Source: a virus
Lineage: Duplodnaviria > Heunggongvirae > Uroviricota > Caudoviricetes
Virus record (IMG/VR): IMGVR_UViG_3300042898_001927
Reading direction: 5' to 3' (one strand)
Length of the DNA stretch: 64,000 nt
In this document: positions 7,624 to 52,798 of the stretch, piece after piece
Position numbering within the stretch: position 1 is the stretch's first letter
Layout of the letters: each line of letters begins with the position of its first letter
Notes under the pieces: generated by a model
The model's input: the letters and a program-made list of their open reading frames with translations, nothing else
Databases searched by the model: none
Told to the model about the DNA's origin: nothing
Made by a program: the position numbers and the translations under genes

Positions 7624-8154
7624 TTACTTTGTACGGATCTTCAATTTTGCGTAGCAGTTTTGGACGCCGACGGCCTGACGAATAGCATCCTGTAGAGCAT
7701 CGTGCTTACTGCCTTTGGGCATATCTGGATCTACGCCCAAATCAAACAAGGTGCGTGTATCACGTAGTTGCCAAAAGTTCCAAGGTAAAGGTTTGCCTAA
7801 TTGACGATAGATATTTTCTATAATGACCAAGTCAAAGGTAGCACCGTGACTCCAGAATGTATCACAGCCCCATGCAAACTTGTGGAACTGGTCTATTGCA
7901 TCTACAAGCGGAATGCGATTGTCTGGACTAAATGCTTCCTCCATAATAGCAGGATCTTGCTTGCTCCACCACTCAATTGTGTTTGGATCAATTTCCCTGC
8001 CTAGCTTGTCTTGATCGTCAAGATCAATACGGAAGTACAGTTTGTCTCCGTAGCCATTACCATGTGGGTTAAAATGTACAGCACCTAAGGATAGGACAAC
8101 TGCGTTTGGGGAGACTGCCATAGTCTCCATATCGATCATAAGTGCTTTAGTCAT
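7624..8154 (-). CDS. DEDDh 3'-5' exonuclease (DnaQ/RNase T/T4 DexA-like)
   Basis: Exo I is MIDMETM, Exo II is HGATFDLVII and Exo III is HDALQDA. The start is set at Met-7 (8154) because the longer ORF start at 8172 lies upstream of the promoter -10. The start remains uncertain and the mRNA may be leaderless. Confidence 0.75.
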   Translation of the reverse strand: MTKALMIDMETMAVSPNAVVLSLGAVHFNPHGNGYGDKLYFRIDLDDQDKLGREIDPNTIEWWSKQDPAIMEEAFSPDNRIPLVDAIDQFHKFAWGCDTFWSHGATFDLVIIENIYRQLGKPLPWNFWQLRDTRTLFDLGVDPDMPKGSKHDALQDAIRQAVGVQNCYAKLKIRTK

Positions 8155-8160
8155 GCAACA

Positions 8161-8189
8161 ATTATAACACAACTAAAGAACTTTGTCAA
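8161..8189 (-). promoter_or_regulatory. Sigma70-consensus early promoter
   Basis: Read on the minus strand it is TTGACA (8184-8189), a 17-nt spacer, then TATAAT (8161-8166). It lies between the bS21 stop and the exonuclease gene. Confidence 0.65.
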
Positions 8190-8434
8190 TAGTTTTTCTT
8201 AGGTAATTCGTTATCGCGAAGCTTCTTTTGCCAACGGGCTTTGGCTGCTCCGTTTTTACGCTTTCGTTCTGTGGTGGGCTTTTCGTAGAACATTTTAGCA
8301 CGGACAGTTTCTAGCACTCCGCTGTCTTCGACTTTCTGTTTAAATTTTCTCAATGCCACATTCAATGGCAGATCACCTACGATAACTTTATTACCAACTG
8401 CTTTATTTTGTTTGCTCATTTTTCTTTTTATCAA
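8186..8434 (-). CDS. rpsU: Ribosomal protein bS21
   Basis: 82 aa. The block NVALRKFKQKVEDSGVLETVRAKMFYEKPTTERKRK aligns with bacterial S21 (FYEKPTTERKR is near-invariant). It has a basic C-terminus. The start may instead be Met-6 at 8419. Confidence 0.85.
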   Translation of the reverse strand: MIKRKMSKQNKAVGNKVIVGDLPLNVALRKFKQKVEDSGVLETVRAKMFYEKPTTERKRKNGAAKARWQKKLRDNELPKKNY

Positions 8435-9635
8435 AAATCATTATGGCAGGTTTGCCATCAATCGTATCTTTACTTATCCTAATCGAAGTCAATCCGCGTT
8501 CAACTAAATCTACGGCATCAAATTGATATGGCAGAAGTACTTTTTCAATAATGTTTTTCAATCCACGGGCATTGGTCTTTAATTCTTTTGCCTGACGTGC
8601 GATTTCTCTTAATGCAGGGGTATCAAAATCCAACTGGATACCGTCTAGCTCAAACATATATTGATATTGCTTGATGGGACTATTTTTTGTCTCTTGTAAT
8701 ATATTGACCAATTGGTCTTCTGATAGCTCATCGACATGAGTGATAAGTCCGAATCGTCCTACGAACTCAGGAATAAGGCCGAACTTAATAAGATCTTTAG
8801 TAGTCACATCTTGGAATACATCAGCATCTTTGTCAATATTTTCAACATTGGCGTGAAATCCTACAGACCGTGCGCCAGTCCGTTGCTTAATGATTTTATC
8901 AATTCCTACAAATGCACCACCGCATATAAACAATATACTCCTGGTGTCGATTTCCTGCATGTCGGAACCTGGATGCTTCCTTTTGCTAGACGAAGGGACT
9001 CTCATAATCGAGCCTTCGATCATTTTTAAAAGTGCCTGTTGGACACCTTCTCCACTTACATCTCGGGTAATACTTACGTTTTCACCCTTTCGACTAATCT
9101 TATCAATTTCATCAATATATACAATACCTCTTGCAGCTTTTTCTAAGTCACCATCTGCTTCAGATATCAACCGAGTAAGAATGCTTTCAACGTCGTCACC
9201 TACGTATCCTGCTTCTGTAATACCGGTTGCATCGCATATGGCAAAAGGCAAGTCCAAATATTGTGCAATTTTTCGAGCCATCATAGTTTTTCCACAACCA
9301 GTAGGCCCTAGTAACAGCACATTAGTTTTTTCTAATTCAATATCAGTGCTAGGATTATTAATCCTTTTGAAATGCTGGCTAACTGCTACGCTTAAACTTA
9401 TTTTTGCATCCTCTTGACCGATAACATATTCGTCAAGGTATTCTTTTATTTTGGCAGGATTTAATAATTTTTTCTCATTTGGAAAAGTTTTTATTTTGTT
9501 ATCTTTGAGTATGTCCTCACATAACTCAACACAGTCATTGCATATTGCGGCATTGTCGCCTACAATGAGTTTCTCAACCTCATCCTTGCTTTTCCCACAA
9601 AAATCACACTTGTGATCGCTGTCCGATTTTGTCAT
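8403..9635 (-). CDS. clpX: ClpX-like AAA+ unfoldase
   Basis: 410 aa. The N-terminal C4 zinc-binding domain is CDFCGKS...CNDCVEL. Walker A is GPTGCGKT and Walker B is IVYIDEIDKI. The ClpX-specific blocks ITRDVSGEGVQQALLKMIEG and FGLIPEFVGR are present, plus sensor-2. Confidence 0.9.
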   Translation of the reverse strand: MTKSDSDHKCDFCGKSKDEVEKLIVGDNAAICNDCVELCEDILKDNKIKTFPNEKKLLNPAKIKEYLDEYVIGQEDAKISLSVAVSQHFKRINNPSTDIELEKTNVLLLGPTGCGKTMMARKIAQYLDLPFAICDATGITEAGYVGDDVESILTRLISEADGDLEKAARGIVYIDEIDKISRKGENVSITRDVSGEGVQQALLKMIEGSIMRVPSSSKRKHPGSDMQEIDTRSILFICGGAFVGIDKIIKQRTGARSVGFHANVENIDKDADVFQDVTTKDLIKFGLIPEFVGRFGLITHVDELSEDQLVNILQETKNSPIKQYQYMFELDGIQLDFDTPALREIARQAKELKTNARGLKNIIEKVLLPYQFDAVDLVERGLTSIRISKDTIDGKPAIMIFDKKKNEQTK

Positions 9636-10017
9636 GTAGTGCTCTTTCTAAAAATGATTCAACGCTAGAAACTCTGTTCTGATTAATGTAATGATACACA
9701 GCTGATTTGCTTTCATCAGTAATACTGTAATAGGTATTTTTCTTACCTACTATATACCCGCTTAATGCACTGGTAGCATAGTTAAGTCCGTCTAAGTCTA
9801 TATACTTATACTCGCTCCTACCTAGCGCAAATAAAAACCAGGGTATATCTATTTCGTGATCATAAAAGTAAATGTTTATATGTTCGGTTAAGTTAGCGTT
9901 GGCTAGCCATTGGCTAACTTTTGATTGGTCTGCTTCGCTCAAGTGAATGAAAAGAATACTGTAAGTTTCATTTTCAAAAAAATCAGGTGGCGTTATTAAT
10001 GTTATTCTATTATCCAT
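9604..10017 (-). CDS. Hypothetical protein
   Basis: ORF track, 137 aa. It is part of the same-strand operon, with a 32-nt overlap with clpX. Confidence 0.5.
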   Translation of the reverse strand: MDNRITLITPPDFFENETYSILFIHLSEADQSKVSQWLANANLTEHINIYFYDHEIDIPWFLFALGRSEYKYIDLDGLNYATSALSGYIVGKKNTYYSITDESKSAVYHYINQNRVSSVESFLERALHDKIGQRSQV

Positions 10018-10018
10018 T

Positions 10019-11485
10019 TTATATTCTTGCTTTAACTGCTAACATGTATTCTTCGGGAATACTTTGTAATGATAGTTTTCCAGATTTCACTAATGCAATA
10101 TATTCTGCAACCTCTGGCTGAGGCGCATCATTGTAAAGATCAGGGGCGGCGCTGGCACTGGCTTCCAAATACTCTTCCTTACTGATTAATGTAGAAGTCC
10201 ATAAGCTACTGTCTTTTTGTTCTTCGTTTTGAACAAACAAAGGTTCGTCAAGGTAATCTTCAGATTCTGTTGTACTACTATTCTGTTCAGGTGCAACTGC
10301 CAATCTATCGTTCATTCTTTCTAATTCGGGTTTATATACTATTGGTTGTAAGTTCTTAAAATACCTAAAAGGTTGCAACAGATAAGGATGTTGTTCTAAT
10401 ATAGATTTTTCCGGAATATAAGTTTTAGCAACTTCGACTAATCGATCACGTTCTAATTCTTCTTCGATCTCACGTTGTCTTTGCTCTTCCAACTCTTGTC
10501 TAGCCTGTGCCAACAGATTGTTAATCTCATCTACACTAACGGTTACAGTTTCCTCTTCTATACCAGTTACAGCTTCTGGAATTACGTCTGCTACTTCTTG
10601 TGCTACAAACCCATTATGTGCAGGCTCAACATCGTCTAAATTTGTGACAGTGGGTTCCGGGGAGACTACATCAACAACCGGTCCTGATGGGCTGTCACCC
10701 TCCGCAATACGTTTTCTAAAATCCTGGAAACTGATTTGACTAGATAGTAGCAAGATAACTGCCATTGGATCAAATACTACAATAAGAAGTATGATGACCC
10801 AAGTGACTGCTTTCTCTAGTATGCCTTCGGAGGTCTCGCCATAGACGAATGCCGCAATGTATTTTATCGGCCCAACTTCCGCTTCGACCTTTCGAACGTC
10901 TGCGGCAATCGGAGCCCTTTCTTCTGTAAGGCCAGCAATAGTTTTTTGTTCGGCGGAGATCTCAGATTGAAGGCGGGCACGTTCTTTTTGTTGTGCGCGG
11001 CGTAGTCCAACTGCTTTATCTGCACCTTTTTCATCTTGACTTCGACCCATAACTTGGTCCACAGCCTCATCCATCTGTTTAAGCGCCTTGCGGTTAGCAT
11101 CTATATTTTCCTTTGCTGTTTTAATCTTCTCGTCATACACTGCAATCTTGGCCATTACATCGCCCGACACCAAACTTTGATCACTGTGGGCTTGGCTTAG
11201 GAAGCCGAAGATACCCATAGATGTTACGCCCATGAGAACGGCAATAGCAGTTAGCAAATAGATTCTAACTGACCAAGGTGCAATGCTCCAATTTTGTTTA
11301 AGCCAGAGCGTAGCGGCAATTTTGCCAACACCGAGCACAATCCCCATAATAATTACAGGAATAACCGCGGCGGCAAAGATAGCAGTAAAGCCGATGATAC
11401 TGTAGTATTCGGCAACAACGGATATAGCAAGTCCGCTAATTAATGTAAGATAGGCTATTAGTTTTTCATTTAATGTTACAGGCAT
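10019..11485 (-). CDS. Membrane protein with coiled-coil and acidic Pro/Glu-rich regions
   Basis: 488 aa. It has three N-terminal TM helices, a further TM segment (VTWVIILLIVVFDPMAVILLL) and a central KQ/ER-rich coiled coil. Confidence 0.55.
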   Translation of the reverse strand: MPVTLNEKLIAYLTLISGLAISVVAEYYSIIGFTAIFAAAVIPVIIMGIVLGVGKIAATLWLKQNWSIAPWSVRIYLLTAIAVLMGVTSMGIFGFLSQAHSDQSLVSGDVMAKIAVYDEKIKTAKENIDANRKALKQMDEAVDQVMGRSQDEKGADKAVGLRRAQQKERARLQSEISAEQKTIAGLTEERAPIAADVRKVEAEVGPIKYIAAFVYGETSEGILEKAVTWVIILLIVVFDPMAVILLLSSQISFQDFRKRIAEGDSPSGPVVDVVSPEPTVTNLDDVEPAHNGFVAQEVADVIPEAVTGIEEETVTVSVDEINNLLAQARQELEEQRQREIEEELERDRLVEVAKTYIPEKSILEQHPYLLQPFRYFKNLQPIVYKPELERMNDRLAVAPEQNSSTTESEDYLDEPLFVQNEEQKDSSLWTSTLISKEEYLEASASAAPDLYNDAPQPEVAEYIALVKSGKLSLQSIPEEYMLAVKARI

Positions 11486-11494
11486 AGATGATAT

Positions 11495-11971
11495 TTATTT
11501 GTTATATCGAGCAACATCTTTACAAAATTCAATAAACTCATCATTGTTTAGATGTTGTTTTAGACAATTAGCCTTCCATGTAATTAATTGAATATTGCCT
11601 TCGATATAACCTTTATCGCTGTCAATTCTGTCAATGGTGCAACTATTGGGATTGCACCATTTGCCTAACCAATATTGACCACCTCTGGTAAATTCAAGGT
11701 CTTCCCCTGTTAATGCACAGTAGAAATCTTGTTCAGCACCTATATCGTATAGGTAATCTAAATCAACTTCAATGGGTTGAGTATTTTCTGTACGATTTGC
11801 CGCTCTTTGTAGATTCTGTCTTAAGAATGCTAGTGTGTGTCTAACTTCTACAAGGGTTTCTTGAGCGCTCTCGTATGCTGCATCTCTTTCCCAGTAGTCT
11901 CTCTGATACGGGCCTCGCTCCTTTAAGAAATACTTATAAGTTTCAGATTCACAGACTTTAGCAATTTTCAT
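11495..11971 (-). CDS. HNH-like endonuclease-domain protein (divergent)
   Basis: 158 aa. A Cys pair precedes IDRIDSDKGYIEGNIQLITWKANC, which resembles the HNH core (HH..N..N) with the His pair replaced by DR. It may be degenerate. Confidence 0.4.
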   Translation of the reverse strand: MKIAKVCESETYKYFLKERGPYQRDYWERDAAYESAQETLVEVRHTLAFLRQNLQRAANRTENTQPIEVDLDYLYDIGAEQDFYCALTGEDLEFTRGGQYWLGKWCNPNSCTIDRIDSDKGYIEGNIQLITWKANCLKQHLNNDEFIEFCKDVARYNK

Positions 11972-11975
11972 AATA

Positions 11976-12368
11976 TTATCTCCTCATGTTAGCAATGGCC
12001 ACAGCTTCTTCGTCTGAGAAGATAGGCACAGCGTTTGACTTGTGCATTGTGCCAATACCTTTGATCTTGTCGCCAGTATAGACCTTAGCTGGTGCTAGTG
12101 CGGCAATACCTGCACCGGAGTTTAGGCTTTTGATATGATGTGTATTTGTTCTACCGACAGGTGTTGGAAGTGAATAGGTCAGCGTTTCTGCCTTCATAGC
12201 TCGCTTACGTTTCTTGTCTTCTGCCTCTACTCCCCACTTCTTTTGTAGGGCATTCCACTGCTCATCAAGCTCACGTGCCTTACGTGCTTCTTCAGCATTG
12301 CGGAATTTGACCTTGCCCTTCTTCTTGCCATTGAGACTAAGGCTAGGGTGATGCAGGTGCATTGACAT
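11976..12368 (-). CDS. Hypothetical basic protein
   Basis: ORF track, 130 aa. It has a Lys/Arg-rich N-terminus. Confidence 0.5.
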   Translation of the reverse strand: MSMHLHHPSLSLNGKKKGKVKFRNAEEARKARELDEQWNALQKKWGVEAEDKKRKRAMKAETLTYSLPTPVGRTNTHHIKSLNSGAGIAALAPAKVYTGDKIKGIGTMHKSNAVPIFSDEEAVAIANMRR

Positions 12369-12369
12369 A

Positions 12370-12702
12370 TTATGCTACTTCGAGTGCAGGGAAGTTGATA
12401 GGATTAGTTGTGTTTGAAGAGTGTGGTTCAAATGTCTTTTGAACCTTACTAGGGATACCTGTGAATCGTAGTACCTGGCCATTGGCAGCAATTTTGAGTG
12501 AGCCTGCAACTACCCAAATCTGTTTGCCCGATGCATCGATGCCTGCTAACTTTCGTACTACACCGTTGATTAGTCCAGTGGGGGTATCCTTACCCCTATT
12601 CCATTGATATGCAGTATCTTTATTAAACCAAATCTGTTCATCCTTAGATTGGGCAATGCACCAAAGTTTAATTTGGGTAAGTGTATGTTCGGCGTTGGTC
12701 AT
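12370..12702 (-). CDS. Hypothetical protein
   Basis: ORF track, 110 aa. A strong RBS (AGGAGG) lies 6 nt upstream, and a TTGCAA-N17-TATAGT promoter is upstream. Confidence 0.5.
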   Translation of the reverse strand: MTNAEHTLTQIKLWCIAQSKDEQIWFNKDTAYQWNRGKDTPTGLINGVVRKLAGIDASGKQIWVVAGSLKIAANGQVLRFTGIPSKVQKTFEPHSSNTTNPINFPALEVA

Positions 12703-12732: not shown

Positions 12733-12761
12733 ACTATACAACAAAACTGGTTTTATTGCAA
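12733..12761 (-). promoter_or_regulatory. Sigma70-like early promoter for the operon starting at 12702
   Basis: Read on the minus strand it is TTGCAA (12756-12761), a 17-nt spacer, then TATAGT (12733-12738), about 25 nt before the AGGAGG RBS. Confidence 0.55.
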
Positions 12762-12769
12762 CCAGAATT

Positions 12770-12800
12770 TTTACCAAAAGAAAAGCACCCGAAGGTGCCA
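12770..12800 (-). terminator. Rho-independent terminator downstream of pstS
   Basis: The hairpin is gcacc-cgaa-ggtgc (12785-12798). On the minus strand it is followed by a T-rich run (plus-strand ccaaaagaaaagc). Confidence 0.55.
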
Positions 12801-12845: not shown

Positions 12846-13850
12846 TTATTTGATTTGTGTCCAAACACGCTCACGGATCTGCTTTGTTAATGCGTCCGGC
12901 AATGCTACATAGTCTAAGTCTGCGGCATCTTTCTTACCATTCTTAAATGCCCAATCAAAGAACTTTAACACTTCATCGCTGTTGGCTTTGTTAGCAGGTG
13001 TCTTATACATGATGATAAAACTTGCTGAACTTACTGGCCATGCATTAGGATTCTTTTGATCCACAATACTTAATCCCATACCAGGAACTGAGAACCAATC
13101 AGCGCCATCTGCAGCCGAGGCAAATGTTAGATCATCTGGGCTAACATACCGGCCACTCTTGTTTTGTAGTTGTAGGAATGTCATGTTGTTTTTCTTAACA
13201 TAAGCATACTCTACATAACCGATTGAACCTTTGATACGGTTCACGTTGGCCGCCACACCTTCGTTGCCTTTGCCACCCACTGAACTAGCAGCCGGCCATT
13301 TGATTGTGGCACCACGACCTGCACGTTGTAACCACTCTGGGCTGACTGTGGCAAGATAGTCTGTCCAGTTGAATGTAGTGCCTGAACCATCAGCACGGTG
13401 TACAACGGTGATTTCTGTGTTTGGCAATACTTTGCCAGGATTCAACGCCGCTAGTTTAGCATCATTCCAACGATTGATCGTGCCCAAGAACACTTCAGCC
13501 ATAACCGGGCCAGTGATGCGTAGCTCACCTGGTTTGAAACCATCCAAATTGATGACAGGCACAGTTCCGCCAATGATAGCAGGGAATTGAACCTGCCCCA
13601 TCTTGTCTAAGTTCTCGCCGCTTACTGGTGCGTCTGTGGCACCAAAGTCAACGGTCTTTGCATTAATTTGACGAATGCCACCGGATGATCCGATGCTTTG
13701 ATAGTTCATACCAGTACCTGTGGCTTTTTTGTAGCCCTCGGCCCACTTGGCATAGATCGGGAATGGGAAGGTAGCACCTGCCCCTGTAATGTCTGCGGCT
13801 TGTGCTGACACTGCTACAGCCGCAAATAGAATAGCAAATAATTTTTTCAC
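12846..13850 (-). CDS. pstS: Phosphate ABC transporter periplasmic substrate-binding protein PstS
   Basis: 334 aa. It has a signal peptide (MKKLFAILFAAVAVSAQA). The mature N-terminus ADITGAGATFPFPIYAKWAEGYK...YQSIGSSGGIRQI matches the PstS family. It has a GTG start with an AAGGAG RBS 7 nt upstream. Confidence 0.9.
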   Translation of the reverse strand: MKKLFAILFAAVAVSAQAADITGAGATFPFPIYAKWAEGYKKATGTGMNYQSIGSSGGIRQINAKTVDFGATDAPVSGENLDKMGQVQFPAIIGGTVPVINLDGFKPGELRITGPVMAEVFLGTINRWNDAKLAALNPGKVLPNTEITVVHRADGSGTTFNWTDYLATVSPEWLQRAGRGATIKWPAASSVGGKGNEGVAANVNRIKGSIGYVEYAYVKKNNMTFLQLQNKSGRYVSPDDLTFASAADGADWFSVPGMGLSIVDQKNPNAWPVSSASFIIMYKTPANKANSDEVLKFFDWAFKNGKKDAADLDYVALPDALTKQIRERVWTQIK

Positions 13851-15613: not shown

Positions 15614-15652
15614 TCAAAAAGAAACCCGCCGAAGCGGGTCCTGTTATTTTCT
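15614..15652 (-). terminator. Hairpin terminator/insulator upstream of the Pho-box promoter
   Basis: An A-run, then the hairpin acccgc-cgaa-gcgggt, then the T-rich run cctgttattttctgtt. It looks bidirectional. Confidence 0.5.
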
Positions 15653-16019
15653 GTTACGAGGTATAACTACCCTAAGCAGTGTTTAGGCTGCTAATGCGAA
15701 CTGTGAGTCGTTTGCGGTTACTTTGTTTTGCTTCTGCGACCGGGAATCCCCAATCCTAACGGCTTCTACATTGCCGGACTGTCCATTTCAATACTTGTGA
15801 CCCAATCGATATCTATGTCATCCCCACCTAAATATACATCATATACTTAGGTGGAGATGCCGGGAACTGCCCCCGGGTCTTGAATCCTTTTCTGTCTACT
15901 TCATACAGTCTTAACTTTTAACAGACTTCCCAGGGTGTGTTTGGCCTCTGCTAAGCCTGTAGGAATCTCACCTACTGCATATCTGCTACGCAAACTTGCC
16001 CCTGCGAAAGCAATTGTAT

Positions 16020-16217
16020 TTAATTAATACGAGTATAGTTCAGTACATTGCCTGAACCATATTGGGATTCGGCAATCATTTTGGCCTGCAGATCATCGTT
16101 AGCGTTTACGCGAACATGTGCAGTTTGATATTGATTGAGACGGATCCAAACTTCGTATGTGTACATTTTAAACTTTCTTTGTCGATCGAATATTTTGAGC
16201 CTGCTTACCTTTGTCAC
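16020..16217 (-). CDS. Small hypothetical protein
   Basis: The ORF-track ORF overlaps the csp 3' end by 50 nt. The real start is probably the internal Met at 16166 ([12 protein letters not shown]..., 48 aa). Confidence 0.25.
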
Positions 16218-16377
16218 CCTCAGCTAGATCAAATTCAACTTCTTGTCCAACTGCTAGTGTCCTGTACCCTTCCATTTGGATCTGACTAAAATGTGCAAAC
16301 ACATCATCAGTTGTGCCATCTGGAACGATAAATCCAAAACCTTTTGAATTATTAAACCATTTAACTTTTCCCTGCAT
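16168..16377 (-). CDS. cspA: Cold-shock protein (CspA family)
   Basis: 69 aa. It carries the RNP1 motif KGFGFI, the RNP2-like VFAHFS, and the N-terminal [15 protein letters not shown]. Confidence 0.9.
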
Positions 16378-17606: not shown

Positions 17607-18050
17607 TTATTCCTTATCTTCTTCTTTAGGTATTTCGCATAGTGCTTCTAGAGTTTTATAATGCTGGTATGCTTTCCGGAGTGCCTCGAAGTGTTCTAAC
17701 TTGGCAGGATCCGGAGTTAGGATAGCTAGACGCTTTTCAATGGTGGTCAGCATATCTCCAAGACTACGGCCCTTCCATTTGATATCCCCTTCGAATATTG
17801 CATCTGTACTAACATGCAGGCCCGTGCTCGAAATGTTTCCTACTGTGTTACTAGTTGAGAAAACATAAGGGTTAGTGCTCCATGTTCCGTTTGCGCCTGC
17901 GCTTACAAAATAGGACCCTGCAGAGCCTGTGGCACCAATGGAGTAGTTATTCATTGAGTTGCTAATATCAATTGATATAGTGTCATTGATCAGTGACTCA
18001 TCGGATAAATCATCTACAAAGATGGTTAGATCGTCATCGGTGTTAGCCAT
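17607..18050 (-). CDS. Hypothetical protein
   Basis: ORF track, 147 aa. It has an acidic N-terminus. Confidence 0.5.
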   Translation of the reverse strand: MANTDDDLTIFVDDLSDESLINDTISIDISNSMNNYSIGATGSAGSYFVSAGANGTWSTNPYVFSTSNTVGNISSTGLHVSTDAIFEGDIKWKGRSLGDMLTTIEKRLAILTPDPAKLEHFEALRKAYQHYKTLEALCEIPKEEDKE

Positions 18051-18267
18051 TTAACTTAGCCTTTAGTTCAGTAAAGCCGCCGATCAGTTCTCCATCTAAA
18101 AAGATCTGAGGAACTGTACGAGCGGTAGGTACAGCTTCTAATAATTCTTCTTTGGTGTAACCGTCACCAATTTTCTTTTCTTCAAAGGCAATGCCTTTCT
18201 GTTTCAATAATGCCTTTGCTTGATCGCAGTAAGGGCAATGGTACTTAGACCATACAATCGCGTTCAT
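18043..18267 (-). CDS. grx: Glutaredoxin (NrdC/NrdH-like redoxin)
   Basis: 74 aa. The CPYC active site is in VWSKYHCPYCDQAK. The C-terminal TVPQIFLDGELIGG is the glutaredoxin signature. Confidence 0.85.
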   Translation of the reverse strand: MNAIVWSKYHCPYCDQAKALLKQKGIAFEEKKIGDGYTKEELLEAVPTARTVPQIFLDGELIGGFTELKAKLNG

Positions 18268-18278
18268 TTTATTTCCTT

Positions 18279-19379
18279 TTATAGATCTGGTAATTCTTCG
18301 TACTCAACTGCATCGCTCATAACGCCGATGACGTAGTTTGTACTTTCATTTTCTTGTAGAGCAGTCTGCTTCTTGTTGATATTAACATGTTTGTTGAACC
18401 AAGGAATAGGACTAAATTTAGGATGCTCCCCTTGGTACTTAATACCAATTTCCTTTAAACGTGTAAATGCAGTATAATCGACAAAGTCGCTAAGGATGGC
18501 AGCATTAAGTCCGATAACTGGACCTAACTTAAACAAGTAGGTTGCCCATTCTTTCTCTTCACGGATAACATCCATGTACATTGCATACACTTCTTCAGCA
18601 CATTCATCGACGATGGCTGCAAATCTAGGATCGTCTTTGACTACATTGTTGATTAGCCAAGCAGTCCATTCTGCGTGTAGTAACTCATCTTGTAAAATCA
18701 AACTGATGATGTTGCCATTGCCAATGTAGATCTTGTTCTCGACCATTGCCAACGATGTAGCAAAGGATACCATAAAGCGGAATGCTTCGAGGGCATAGCT
18801 GGCGTTCAAGGCTAACCAGATAGCCTTGATGTGTTCATGCTCGCTAATTTCCTCACCGACTTCCTTGCGGCAATTAATTCGATGTAGTGTTTCGTAGTAC
18901 ATACCGACACTACTGGCCATACTTACGATTGGCTCGATGTCATGAATCTTGTTAAATTCTTCTTTAGGTACGCCATAGACATTACGAATAATGTGACTGT
19001 AAGATTTTGAGTGAATATTTGTTTCAAAGAAACTCCAATTAGATACTAGTGCTTCTAGTTCCGGGATTGAGATAACAGGACTGAATACCTGATTAGGTGC
19101 TCGTCCTTGAATACTGTCCAAGGCTGTTTGACGCAGTAGGTTGCTGGTAAAGATATGTTTTACTGCATCGCTAGATTCTTTATGATCCATTTTGTCTTTG
19201 GTAAGACTGATTTCTTCTGGGACCCAAAAGAAGCCACGTGCTAGTTCTTCATACTTGGCAATCTTAGGATACTTAACTTCTTCAAATCGTTGCACAGTGA
19301 CAGGACCAGCAGGATCTAAAAACATTTTTCGTTTTAGATAGTTTGTTTGCTTACTTAAATTATATTGTTCTTTACTCAT
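18279..19379 (-). CDS. nrdB: Ribonucleotide reductase class Ia small subunit
   Basis: 366 aa. It is ferritin-like with di-iron ligands (FFWVPEE...; paired EXXH helices) and has the C-terminal acidic tail used for docking R1. Confidence 0.9.
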   Translation of the reverse strand: MSKEQYNLSKQTNYLKRKMFLDPAGPVTVQRFEEVKYPKIAKYEELARGFFWVPEEISLTKDKMDHKESSDAVKHIFTSNLLRQTALDSIQGRAPNQVFSPVISIPELEALVSNWSFFETNIHSKSYSHIIRNVYGVPKEEFNKIHDIEPIVSMASSVGMYYETLHRINCRKEVGEEISEHEHIKAIWLALNASYALEAFRFMVSFATSLAMVENKIYIGNGNIISLILQDELLHAEWTAWLINNVVKDDPRFAAIVDECAEEVYAMYMDVIREEKEWATYLFKLGPVIGLNAAILSDFVDYTAFTRLKEIGIKYQGEHPKFSPIPWFNKHVNINKKQTALQENESTNYVIGVMSDAVEYEELPDL

Positions 19380-19758
19380 TTGTGTGTTTCTTTCTATAGT
19401 CTTCTACTGCGGCTTTAATTGCATCTTCGGCTAGAATACTGCAATGTATCTTAACTGGGGGCAATGCTAGTTCTTCAGCAATTTGGCTATTACGAATGTG
19501 ACTAGCATCATCCACATGCATTCCTTTAACCATCTCAGTGACAAGACTGGAGCTGGCGATTGCTGAACCACATCCATATGTCTTGAAACGAGCATCTCTA
19601 ATAATACCATTTTCATCTACCTTTATCTGTAGTTTCATTACATCACCGCAGGCAGGGGCACCGACCATTCCAGTACCTACTCCTTCTTCGTCTTTAGCAA
19701 AGCTACCTACGTTACGAGGATTCTCATAGTGGTCAATAACTTTATCTGAATAGGCCAT
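19372..19758 (-). CDS. iscU: IscU/NifU-type Fe-S cluster scaffold protein
   Basis: 128 aa. The three conserved Cys are present (GAPACGDVMKL, KTYGCGSAIASS, HCSILAEDAIKAA). The LPPVK motif is also present. The gene overlaps nrdA and nrdB at both ends. Confidence 0.85.
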   Translation of the reverse strand: MAYSDKVIDHYENPRNVGSFAKDEEGVGTGMVGAPACGDVMKLQIKVDENGIIRDARFKTYGCGSAIASSSLVTEMVKGMHVDDASHIRNSQIAEELALPPVKIHCSILAEDAIKAAVEDYRKKHTNE

Positions 19759-28136: not shown

Positions 28137-28562
28137 TTATATTGCTGCCGGAAGTGCCTTGATGATTGTATTTTTAGTTGACGGATTGTGCAATTCAAAA
28201 ATTGCTTGTTCTATATTTATAGTTTCTGATAACTTTTGGATAATTGGAACACCGTTGACATCTTCAATAAGAGACCCTAATTCGTTATCACCCGAAACAT
28301 ATACTCCGCTGCGGTCAGGACTAAACCTAAAGGTCCATACAGCATGTTTGCCCTTGTACTTTGTACCAAAGCCCATGTCTTTAATGTCGCTAACTTCTAG
28401 TATTGGACCTGTATCATAACTGATAATAGATCTAATTTCAACACACTGCTTTAGTGTAACAAAATTCCTATATTGATCGTGCTCAAGTTGGGTTCCTTGA
28501 TTTAGTCTAACAACTTTAGTGTCAGTAATATCTATTAATGTTTTGATTTCGATGATTTGCAT
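28137..28562 (-). CDS. Hypothetical protein
   Basis: ORF track, 141 aa. A late-like ATAAATAT element and a terminator hairpin lie upstream. Confidence 0.5.
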   Translation of the reverse strand: MQIIEIKTLIDITDTKVVRLNQGTQLEHDQYRNFVTLKQCVEIRSIISYDTGPILEVSDIKDMGFGTKYKGKHAVWTFRFSPDRSGVYVSGDNELGSLIEDVNGVPIIQKLSETINIEQAIFELHNPSTKNTIIKALPAAI

Positions 28563-29604: not shown

Positions 29605-29781
29605 ATGAAATACATATCAGAAAAAATGATCTCTATCATGGAACGATTAGCTGAAATGTTCCCAGGTAGCAGTTATCAAAGCCGCTTAGATGCGTATCTA
29701 AGCACCAAAGGCATTACCGATGCCGCTCAGTTGGAAAACTACATCCGACAATTTAATTCTCAAAAGGAAAGCTATCTATGA
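29605..29781 (+). CDS. Small hypothetical protein (58 aa, below the ORF-track cutoff)
   Basis: Hand translation gives MKYISEKMISIMERLAEMFPGSSYQSRLDAYLSTKGITDAAQLENYIRQFNSQKESYL. An AGGAAA RBS is present. It is the first gene of the plus-strand island downstream of an extended -10 element (TGTTATACT). Confidence 0.35.
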   Translation: MKYISEKMISIMERLAEMFPGSSYQSRLDAYLSTKGITDAAQLENYIRQFNSQKESYL

Positions 29782-29900
29782 AAAAATTACTAAACATTCT
29801 ATACGAAATTGGCCTAAGCATTGGTCAAGCTCGCGCCGCCGCCGCTATGGTTCGTGTAGGCATGCACAAAGAAGCACAGACATTACTGGCTGGCAAGTAA
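29778..29900 (+). CDS. Small hypothetical protein (40 aa)
   Basis: It has an ATGA overlap with the previous ORF and an AAGGAAA RBS. It encodes MKKLLNILYEIGLSIGQARAAAAMVRVGMHKEAQTLLAGK. Confidence 0.3.
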   Translation: MKKLLNILYEIGLSIGQARAAAAMVRVGMHKEAQTLLAGK

Positions 29901-30006
29901 TATTGTATTTTGTCAGATCGCTTTACAAAGCGTGACAAGGTCTATATAATAAATACTTAGGCAGTAATGATACTGCTTATACAAACATACACACAAGGAG
30001 AAAAAT

Positions 30007-30261
30007 ATGTTTTCAGCATTTGCACCATACTTCACGCTCGAAGCACAAATCGATGCGTTTCAAACTACCAAGCGTGGTTTAACAGATAAGATCATTACTG
30101 ATCCTACACTGAACAAGGCAGCACATCAATATATCGATGCTCAGACTACATTTGCCAAGATGTTGTCAAAGAACTTTGCTGATCTTGCCAAGTATTCCGT
30201 GGATTCTTTTGCCAACAAGGCATTTCCACAGACTAAAGAAAAAGCCACTACTAAGGCTTAA
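30007..30261 (+). CDS. Hypothetical protein
   Basis: 84 aa. An AAGGAG RBS lies 7 nt upstream within a conserved ACACAAGGAGAAA context. Confidence 0.5.
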   Translation: MFSAFAPYFTLEAQIDAFQTTKRGLTDKIITDPTLNKAAHQYIDAQTTFAKMLSKNFADLAKYSVDSFANKAFPQTKEKATTKA

Positions 30262-30282
30262 TACACACACAAGGAAAATACA

Positions 30283-30555
30283 ATGTCAAATTTTGAAACA
30301 CCAAAGCTACCAGAAGTAAAATTTAATAAGAACGGATACGAAATCCGCACAGACATCCTGGCCATGGCCAAAGACATGGTACAACAAGACTTTCAAGTCA
30401 AGTTTGCCGGTTGGGAAATGACTGCTGAGCGCGACGAAAAGACTGGCCAAATCGTTAGCAAGGTCAATATGCCAGAGTTTCCAGGACTTGAAAAAGTTCT
30501 AGAAACAGCTGAAAAGATGTACGGTTTTGTTAATGCTGGTGCTACTAGAAAATAA
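30283..30555 (+). CDS. Hypothetical protein
   Basis: 90 aa. An AAGGAAA RBS is present within the same ACACACAAGGAAA context. Confidence 0.5.
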   Translation: MSNFETPKLPEVKFNKNGYEIRTDILAMAKDMVQQDFQVKFAGWEMTAERDEKTGQIVSKVNMPEFPGLEKVLETAEKMYGFVNAGATRK

Positions 30556-40208: not shown

Positions 40209-40216
40209 TATTTATA
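40209..40216 (-). promoter_or_regulatory. T4-type late promoter (TATAAATA)
   Basis: On the minus strand it reads CAGTATAAATATAAG, about 38 nt upstream of the ATG at 40171. Confidence 0.6.
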
Positions 40217-48291: not shown

Positions 48292-48299
48292 TATTTATA
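48292..48299 (-). promoter_or_regulatory. T4-type late promoter (TATAAATA)
   Basis: On the minus strand it reads TTATAAATAACTG, about 31 nt upstream of the start at 48261. Confidence 0.6.
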
Positions 48300-52790: not shown

Positions 52791-52798
52791 TATTTATA
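52791..52798 (-). promoter_or_regulatory. T4-type late promoter (TATAAATA)
   Basis: On the minus strand it reads ACTATAAATATTG, about 21 nt upstream of the ATG at 52770. Confidence 0.6.

Follow-up and report, generated by a model that had tools for sequence, protein, structure and literature searches.

A clpX-overlapping gene for a phage-type ribosomal protein bS21 in what appears to be an uncultured freshwater clade of jumbo phages

Introduction

The ribosomal protein bS21 joins the 30S subunit late and loosely and is exchangeable; it supports the anti-Shine-Dalgarno (anti-SD) sequence on the platform and is needed for initiation led by a Shine-Dalgarno (SD) sequence (PMC6375957; Jha et al.). 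Its N-terminal helix covers the anti-SD at the mRNA site, while the C-terminal helix acts as an anchor (Chen et al., 2022, PMC9723584). In the 30S head of Escherichia coli the C-terminal RLY is packed into h37, with a stacking contact to A1167, and Betaproteobacteria have KLY where E. coli has RLY (Watson et al., 2020, PMC7550191).

Among the ribosomal proteins detected in viruses bS21 makes up 88% of cases, mostly aquatic (PMC6375957). That virus-encoded S21 occurs, pelagiphages included, had been noted in the initial annotation of the locus described here, and HTVC008M is the case in point: like the present phage it is a T4-like aquatic virus, in its case a lytic myovirus, and its bS21 is also under purifying selection (Mizuno et al., 2019, PMC6375957). 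The HTVC008M protein enters E. coli 70S ribosomes, and ribosomes carrying it are about 5% active in vitro (PMC6375957). This assay, in heterologous E. coli, is the sole published functional test of a viral bS21, and that such proteins favour phage mRNA has so far been a hypothesis for every phage. The two proteins differ in derivation, which is alphaproteobacterial (SAR11) for HTVC008M, whereas the protein studied here ends in a tail of Burkholderiales type and carries a basic extension at its N terminus. With the present protein as query, HTVC008M bS21 is not among the tblastn matches in the phage collection at E<=1e-3.

A second set of relatives comes from huge phages, where rpS21 is likewise encoded on phage genomes of >200 kb (Al-Shayeb et al., 2020, PMC7162821; Watson et al., 2020, PMC7550191). 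Their S21 proteins share with ours N-terminal extensions rich in basic residues, predicted to aid competitive binding or preferential initiation (PMC7162821), and KLY-like tails to which a betaproteobacterial origin has been attributed (PMC7550191). The huge-phage proteins themselves are predicted to take the place of host S21 (PMC7162821).

The third system is found in large freshwater phages of Bacteroidetes, for which the same substitution mechanism has been proposed (Chen et al., 2022, PMC9723584). There bS21 lies among late structural genes with which it is co-expressed, and it is Bacteroidetes-like with a Tyr54 signature. In contrast, the gene analyzed here has early-type neighbours and host-type promoters, lies far from the late motif TATAAATA, and its product resembles the proteobacterial bS21 of SD-using bacteria, with a C-terminal domain of pI 10.75. 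In a survey of 900 bS21-encoding phages, genes for Clp ATPase (50 and 47 cases), for exonuclease (37) and for endonuclease (32) rank with the most frequent neighbours of the gene (PMC9723584). In one bacterial pathogen, bS21 paralogues give rise to specialised ribosomes (PMC9578407). They embody the same concept, a variant swap that alters gene expression; they are a cellular rather than a viral system, and we liken them to the present case by concept alone.

Results

An intact gene for bS21

We analyzed a 64,000-nt stretch of viral DNA, called the window below; its features around the gene, which we call rpsU, are collected in Table 1. The initial annotation had read the open reading frame (ORF) as a bS21 homologue and proposed comparison with the Pfam Ribosomal_S21 HMM. 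The product MSKQNKAVGNKVIVGDLPLNVALRKFKQKVEDSGVLETVRAKMFYEKPTTERKRKNGAAKARWQKKLRDNELPKKNY (77 aa, from the ATG at 8419) matches that model, PF01165, with E=1.1e-13 and 51 bits (cut-off 27), and it also matches the NCBIfam S21p equivalog TIGR00030 (52.1 bits, cut-off 28.95), PHROG 21469 'ribosomal protein S21' (2.9e-15, 57 bits) and the bS21 chains of Acinetobacter, Pseudomonas and E. coli ribosomes in the PDB (E=1e-13 to 2e-12). We took ALRRFK...G.L...R....YEKP(S/T)..RK as the core pattern of bS21. The core of the phage protein, VALRKFK...GVLETVRAKMFYEKPTTERKRK, aligns to solved bS21 chains with E about 1e-13; the core motif quoted earlier is thus present, although its exact text is GVLETVR and not GVL.EVR. 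With 77 aa and a pI of 10.4, the protein fits the small (about 55-80 aa), very basic bS21 type. An AF2 model of middling confidence (pLDDT 69) has a strand at residues 13-18 and helices at 19-33, 35-45 and 50-71; a Foldseek search of the PDB with this model gave zero matches. Judged by the profile and chain matches, which are far beyond chance, 8186..8419 encodes a clear and intact bS21.

The frame is uninterrupted on the minus strand from 8186 to 8434, where a TTG would start an 82-aa protein in the ORF listing, and the gene had originally been given this full extent. The ORF itself stands, but its start does not. Because the ATG at 8419 is used in public annotations of the identical sequence, and the homologous ATG by every relative, two lineages without clpX upstream among them, we place the gene at 8186..8419; the same comparison rules against the TTG at 8434, and translation almost certainly begins at the ATG instead. 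Frame-disrupting errors, which had been named as a possible objection, were not found in the rpsU reading frame. On the plus strand at the same position the ORF listing contains no rival frame that reaches 40 aa.

Table 1. Features of the rpsU region, in window coordinates.
Feature	Coordinates	Strand	Remarks
Exonuclease gene, Rv2179c-like 3'-5'	7624..8154	minus	Pfam PF16473 1.2e-38; PHROG 255
Perfect sigma-70 promoter TTGACA-N17-TATAAT, TG-extended	8161..8189	minus	nearest to rpsU
rpsU-like gene (phage bS21)	8186..8419	minus	77 aa, 77 codons; ATG start, TGA stop
C-terminal tail LPKKNY and stop codon	8186..8206	minus	for relatives' tails see text
N-terminal extension MSKQNKA	8399..8419	minus	first 7 codons; without counterpart in 70-71 aa cellular bS21
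clpX	8403..9635	minus	410 aa; NF003745, TIGR00382, Pfam zf-C4_ClpX and AAA_2
orf137	9604..10017	minus	rpsU operon, upstream of clpX
orf488	10019..11485	minus	rpsU operon
Endonuclease VII-like gene	11495..11971	minus	rpsU operon
orf130	11976..12368	minus	same seven-gene rpsU operon
orf110	12370..12702	minus	first gene of the operon ending in rpsU
Five operon genes upstream of clpX, together	9604..12702	minus	
Operon promoter TTGCAA-N17-TATAGT, TGT-extended -10	12733..12761	minus	imperfect sigma-70 type, probable
Intrinsic-terminator-like hairpin	12784..12799	minus	after pstS; upstream operon boundary

Overlap with clpX

The gene preceding rpsU scores 536 bits against NF003745 (cut-off 359) and 509 against TIGR00382 (cut-off 371), and has both an N-terminal C4 zinc finger (zf-C4_ClpX, 59 bits) and the AAA+ module (AAA_2), so that its product is, by these profiles, a full-length ClpX. 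Its translation contains GYVGDDVE, KRKHPG and SVGF, which by analogy with E. coli ClpX we take to be the GYVG pore loop, the RKH loop and, in the VGF, an IGF-type ClpP-docking loop. As first annotated, the two genes overlap: the end of clpX covers the start of rpsU by 17 nt (8403..8419). No SD sequence was found in the rpsU leader (…GATAAAAAGAAAA-ATG), and AGGAG or GGAGG ribosome-binding sites stand ahead of many other genes of the window. Because rpsU starts inside the tail of clpX and has no SD sequence, the two genes are probably translationally coupled. The product of orf137, the gene upstream of clpX, has a flavodoxin-like, nucleoside-deoxyribosyltransferase-like fold with no evident link to translation.

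Promoters and time of expression

Perfect TTGACA-N17/18-TATAAT sites occur four times in the window, each time on the minus strand, against an expectation of 0.07. The initial annotation had taken promoters of this kind to drive an early operon containing rpsU. The sites do exist, but none of the four stands upstream of clpX-rpsU, and they serve neighbouring transcription units. The nearest of them has the last Tyr codon and the stop codon of rpsU as its -35 box (TAT-TGA-CA), an overlap kept in nearly all related loci whichever gene comes next, and the ATG of the exonuclease gene sits 6 nt past its -10 box. From this layout, we assign the promoter to the downstream exonuclease gene and not to rpsU.

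The probable promoter of orf110-orf130-endoVII-orf488-orf137-clpX-rpsU is instead the imperfect site at 12733..12761, which is followed by an AGGAGG site. This site and the terminator hairpin after pstS are the first convincing signals for transcription on the upstream side of rpsU. Terminator, operon promoter and AGGAGG site are all kept in six diverged loci (L001, L002, L006, L020, L025 and L030), and on this layout we read rpsU as the final gene of an operon of seven that is transcribed by a host-type RNA polymerase. A late promoter upstream of rpsU was considered and rejected: the T4-type late motif TATAAATA occurs 6 times in the window, is not enriched, and is not found between 8.4 and 12.8 kb. 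With seven genes behind a host sigma-70-type promoter, rpsU is therefore probably expressed early or in the middle of infection rather than late. The early operon first proposed is plausible to this extent, from promoter type alone.

Phage context and conservation

Nearly all sizeable ORFs of the window lie on the minus strand. They include rIIA (PHROG 612, 3.6e-132), about 30% identical to the rIIA of jumbo Pseudomonas phages, and genes for a DNA methyltransferase, an endonuclease VII-like protein, NrdA, NrdB, collagen-like tail fibres and very large structural proteins; rIIB is annotated in an identical public contig. The claim that this bS21 is phage-encoded thus holds, with rIIA/rIIB, endonuclease VII, NrdAB and tail fibres found mostly on the strand of rpsU. 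The phage also carries helpers of a housekeeping type, namely clpX, a tmRNA, a cold-shock protein, PstS, NifU and glutaredoxin.

No near relative was found among isolated phages: a megablast search with 6 kb around rpsU gave zero DNA-level matches in 50,697 phage records, and tblastn with the protein found only 18 of these records, at <=60% identity and mostly representing bacterial contamination or prophage flanks. Metagenomic relatives are common. The identical protein is present on 25 public contigs, where it is annotated as S21, and close variants occur on contigs of 240-376 kb in JGI, ENA, NCBI and Logan assemblies. A homologue search returned 1422 bS21 relatives, the best 120 of which are all 77-78 aa long and at least 82% identical. 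The neighbourhood of rpsU is common to 28 IMG/VR viral contigs, and the order orf137-clpX-rpsU-(variable insertions)-exonuclease is kept down to about 63% S21 identity (37 loci); in two loci (L031 and L033) clpX is missing and rpsU is kept beside orf137. By its genes and relatives, we assign the phage to an uncultured, T4-like clade of freshwater jumbo phages.

The median dN/dS of rpsU is 0.15 over 67 pairwise comparisons, and for the closest informative pair (L001 and L006) dN is 0.034 and dS 1.34. These ratios indicate a functional gene under strong purifying selection.

N-terminal extension, C-terminal tail and origin

The initial annotation had proposed comparing the N-terminal extension with cellular bS21. 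The segment ahead of the ALR motif has 21 aa and a net charge of +2 in the phage protein, versus 14 aa and -1 in cellular bS21 (E. coli and beta-type). The codons of the extension fall mostly inside the overlap with the clpX tail; the extension is retained in relatives without clpX, and it is disordered in the AF2 model (pLDDT 69). Burkholderiales RpsU shares with the phage protein the core ALR+FK...G.L.E.R...FYEKPT.ERKRK and the LPKK-x-Y end. The phage protein differs by seven additional N-terminal residues, by VGDLPLN in place of the acidic cellular ENEPFE segment, by ARWQ in place of KRHY, and by a penultimate residue that is usually Asn or Met in the phage family instead of Leu. It does not have the 70-aa Burkholderiales architecture with its MP.I.VKENEPFEVALRRFK start, and we regard it, on these differences, as a derived homologue rather than a host-like copy.

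The tail belongs to the LPKKLY motif class of Burkholderiales except at this penultimate position. In the best 120 of the 1422 relatives the tails are LPKKNY (47), LPKKMY (45), LPKKMF (19), LPKKLF (4) and LPKKLY (2), and LPKKLY proper also occurs in more distant relatives of the phage family. Among bacteria, LPKKLY is the tail of Burkholderiales-type genera, Burkholderia, Polynucleobacter, Acidovorax, Curvibacter, Polaromonas and Massilia among them; LPPKLY is found in other orders of Betaproteobacteria (Thauera, Sideroxydans, Gallionella, Laribacter and others), and RLY in Gammaproteobacteria (Watson et al., 2020, supplementary file 1, PMC7550191). We took the taxonomy of the nearest cellular-like sequences from the tail motifs tabulated there.

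The blastp alignment to beta-type 70-aa bS21 runs without gaps to the terminal Tyr (58% over 60 aa, 70 bits), while that to E. coli bS21 (59 bits) leaves the tail unaligned; identity of the core to gammaproteobacterial bS21 is 57-60%, equal to that with the beta type. When the nearest relatives were grouped into 50%-identity clusters, 124 of the 150 nearest representatives ended in LPxKx[YFH], and at least 16 of the 150 were N-extended and shared an (A/Q/N/R)RW signature. In a neighbour-joining tree (70 columns, no bootstrap) these N-extended sequences group with the present family in a single clade, outside which fall 100 of the 101 cellular-like sequences. We read this as a phage-type lineage of bS21, with a basic N-terminal extension of 7-9 residues and the ARW signature as its markers. 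It most likely descends from betaproteobacterial bS21, of the Burkholderiales type. A basic C-terminal domain marks the bS21 of SD-using bacteria as opposed to Bacteroidetes (criterion of Jha et al.), and the strongly basic domain of the phage protein (pI 10.75) places it with the SD-using bacteria by that measure.

The host

From the same similarities we infer that the host belongs to the same group, the Burkholderiales-type Betaproteobacteria. This host call has one tail motif and overall similarity as its basis. A search of the window for tRNA and tmRNA genes with ARAGORN found none; an Rfam search found a permuted tmRNA 7 kb upstream of rpsU. The tag of this tmRNA ends in ALAA, a ClpX degron. 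Its class is 'beta' in the window, and we dropped that label as host evidence since the syntenic copy in the close relative L006 scores as 'alpha'. The only match in GTDB is one 2.3 kb contig with orf137-clpX-rpsU, binned in a Bacteroidetes MAG. A Bacteroidetes host does not fit with consensus sigma-70 promoters and AGGAG sites, and we read the contig as a mis-binned viral fragment. Taken together, the MAG contig and the ambiguous tmRNA class are weak counter-evidence to a Burkholderiales-type host.

Discussion

We think it likely that this gene supplies a functional, phage-adapted bS21 of Burkholderiales type, made from an early or middle operon, which substitutes for the host protein in the 30S subunit and gives preference to phage mRNA. 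Uptake into the host 30S subunit with a bias in initiation, as the initial annotation also suggested, is the usual hypothesis in the literature. AGGAG-type sites precede many genes of the window, and the host ribosome therefore presumably reads SD sequences, where bS21 acts. The phage protein would exchange into the host 30S platform beside the anti-SD end of the 16S rRNA, replacing or topping up host bS21. Its core and LPKK-x-Y tail would dock in the manner of host bS21 (against h37 and A1167 in E. coli), while the altered N-terminal part, lying on the mRNA path, would shift the preference of initiation toward phage messages. Substitution with an altered mRNA preference fits the combination of a conserved anchor and tail with a changed N-terminal part.

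The conserved parts would also be explained if the protein simply kept 30S subunits complete after host transcription has been shut off, without any preference for phage mRNA. Core and tail are kept as in cellular bS21, the protein binds last, loosely and exchangeably, and clpX, tmRNA, cold-shock protein, PstS, NifU and glutaredoxin are further housekeeping-type helpers that the phage brings along. However, the specific N-terminal extension and the replacement of ENEPFE have been kept over long divergence and would be superfluous for plain replacement, which makes simple supply a rather unlikely account.

A more far-reaching version of the favoured reading, substitution with a preference for phage mRNA, is that rpsU closes a conserved early 'translation take-over' set in a large uncultured group of Burkholderiales-infecting jumbo phages, consisting of ClpX, the tmRNA with its ALAA tag, the cold-shock protein and the N-extended bS21, with ClpX presented as co-translated with bS21. 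The extended bS21 would then reprogram the 30S subunit toward phage messages, SD-less ones included, and the favoured messages would include the apparently leaderless one that starts directly after rpsU; the task of ClpX and the tmRNA would be to remove host bS21 or stalled products of the host. We consider this version of the idea speculative and, as it stands, unlikely to be correct.

Instead of redirecting host ribosomes, phage bS21 could poison them on host mRNAs, with a gain for the phage that is relative only. The activity of about 5% of control for E. coli ribosomes with pelagiphage bS21 (PMC6375957) points in this direction, and so does the location in a region with host-type promoters that are typical of take-over genes such as rIIA/B. 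But the ribosome in that measurement was heterologous, hundreds of phage genes depend on these very ribosomes for their translation, and the strongly conserved docking tail points to a ribosome that works; we find poisoning improbable. Still less probable is a role outside the ribosome, in which the protein would bind RNA as a regulator or chaperone, for example phage mRNAs or the phage tmRNA, or would interact with the co-translated ClpX as its partner or substrate. The overlap with clpX is tight and conserved, the tmRNA gene lies 7 kb upstream of rpsU, and a non-ribosomal RNP containing bS21 has been proposed (PMC12054373). However, rpsU persists without clpX in L031 and L033, and the conserved residues are those of ribosomal bS21, the rRNA-docking tail included. 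Finally, one might suspect that rpsU is no phage gene at all but a bacterial one carried by a bacterial or chimeric contig, or a recent capture now in decay, given that many 'phage' database records with S21 matches are bacterial contamination and that one relative was binned into a bacterial MAG. This reading is contradicted by phage genes flanking rpsU on the same strand, by the same neighbourhood on >30 independent contigs including IMG/VR viral contigs, by a best cellular-type match that is only about 58% identical and by strong purifying selection, and can for practical purposes be set aside.

The clade is of interest because bS21 is the commonest viral ribosomal protein, yet no native host has so far been used to demonstrate what it does to translation. 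The clade is abundant, its rpsU is very well conserved and combines a host-type docking tail with a phage-specific N-terminal extension, and the early-type operon contrasts with the late-expressed bS21 of Bacteroidetes phages. With a host in culture, it would make a clean system for studying how ribosomes are redirected by the swap of one platform protein.

All general elements of the case are published: viral bS21, its aquatic bias, N-terminal extensions, huge-phage tmRNAs (the last two reported together by Al-Shayeb et al., 2020, PMC7162821), KLY-like tails, and Clp and exonuclease neighbours. Specific to it are the conserved clpX overlap, the stop codon in the -35 box, the sigma-70-type operon promoter and the early-type neighbourhood; the first three, like the genome itself, are absent from the huge-phage S21 papers. 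The gene is thus a sound example of a phenomenon described from 2013 to 2020 and adds little beyond the published surveys. In ALT_PHAGE_39_18, listed as 'putative betaproteobacteria' (PMC7550191), the region upstream of rpsU reads ATGATTTTTGAAGAGAAAAATG and is nearly identical to ATGATTTTTGATAAAAAGAAAAATG at the present locus; the same phage group is therefore probably already in the data set of Watson et al.

Overlap of the rpsU stop with the exonuclease promoter

The final codons of rpsU, the phage bS21 gene, share bases with the -35 box of the promoter serving the next gene downstream, which encodes an Rv2179c-like 3'-5' exonuclease. This arrangement of C-terminal Tyr codon, stop and -35 box is kept in nearly all of the related loci compared with the window (L001-L037), and the terminal aromatic residue of phage bS21 is functionally important. 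A gap of just 5-7 nt separates the -10 hexamer from the start codon of the exonuclease gene downstream, so the exonuclease mRNA should have little or no leader, a prediction from promoter geometry; the short spacing is also kept in diverged relatives (L006, L018, L024, L025, L031, L034, L035). Ribosomes lacking bS21 have been reported to favour leaderless translation (PMC10491246), which makes it curious that a gene with a predicted leaderless mRNA should sit beside one encoding bS21.

Features of the window discussed in the text
Feature	Position (nt)	Strand	Remark
TTGACA -35 box of next promoter	8184..8189	minus	last Tyr codon and TGA stop of rpsU, plus CA
Exonuclease start and promoter	8154..8189	minus	perfect TG-extended consensus promoter
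Endonuclease VII-like gene	11495..11971		presence varies among relatives
Region with host-like auxiliary genes	12846..13850, 16168..16377, 18043..18267, 19372..19758	minus	
tmRNA gene	15620..15946	minus	permuted (two-piece); Rfam match
Four small genes (58, 40, 84, 90 aa)	29605..30555	plus	CACACAAGGA-type ribosome-binding site before each
TATAAATA motif	52791..52798, 48292..48299, 40209..40216, 28214..28221	minus	T4-type late-promoter motif

Gene gain and loss around rpsU

The junction between rpsU and the exonuclease gene is an insertion hotspot, occupied in L002, L015-L017, L019-L023 and L026-L030. The insert in L002 is an opposite-strand gene for a NUMOD3 homing endonuclease, that in L029 a methyltransferase/endonuclease pair, and other loci carry 0.6-3.9 kb of other genes. 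Two IMG/VR contigs (L031 and L033) have no clpX, with orf137, elsewhere the gene just upstream of clpX, followed directly by rpsU; clpX has been lost in these two lineages. Because rpsU is kept in both clpX-less contigs, retention of bS21 is independent of ClpX.

One related locus, the 2315 bp GTDB record CAILDT010000461.1 (L009), carries orf137-clpX-rpsU of the window's phage clade and was deposited within a MAG named 'uncultured Bacteroidetes bacterium'. Its placement there is probably a binning artefact, and the label could misdirect host prediction for the clade.

tmRNA and host-like genes

The tmRNA gene lies in a 596-nt gap between a cold-shock gene and a metallophosphoesterase gene. Rfam scores it at 107 bits for tmRNA_permuted (GA 47) and 92 bits for beta_tmRNA (GA 84), whereas ARAGORN did not detect it. 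The class label is unreliable, since the window copy matches beta_tmRNA while the syntenic copy in the related locus L006 (4810..5102) scores as alpha_tmRNA. The reading frame encodes the tag ANDSQFALAA*, ending in LAA; LAA-ending tags are a degron class recognised by ClpX. The phage's own clpX is 6 kb away from the tmRNA gene.

The host-like auxiliary genes comprise a PstS phosphate-binding protein scoring at equivalog level, a CspA-type cold-shock gene preceded by a TTGACG-N17-TATAAT promoter, a glutaredoxin gene, and a NifU-like Fe-S scaffold gene between nrdA and nrdB.

Strand layout and late-type motifs

The four-gene cassette is the only one on the opposite strand, the rest of the 64 kb window being all minus. 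The TATAAATA motif shows no enrichment over chance across the whole window; its position directly upstream of several structural or unassigned genes suggests that late transcription in this phage is T4-like.
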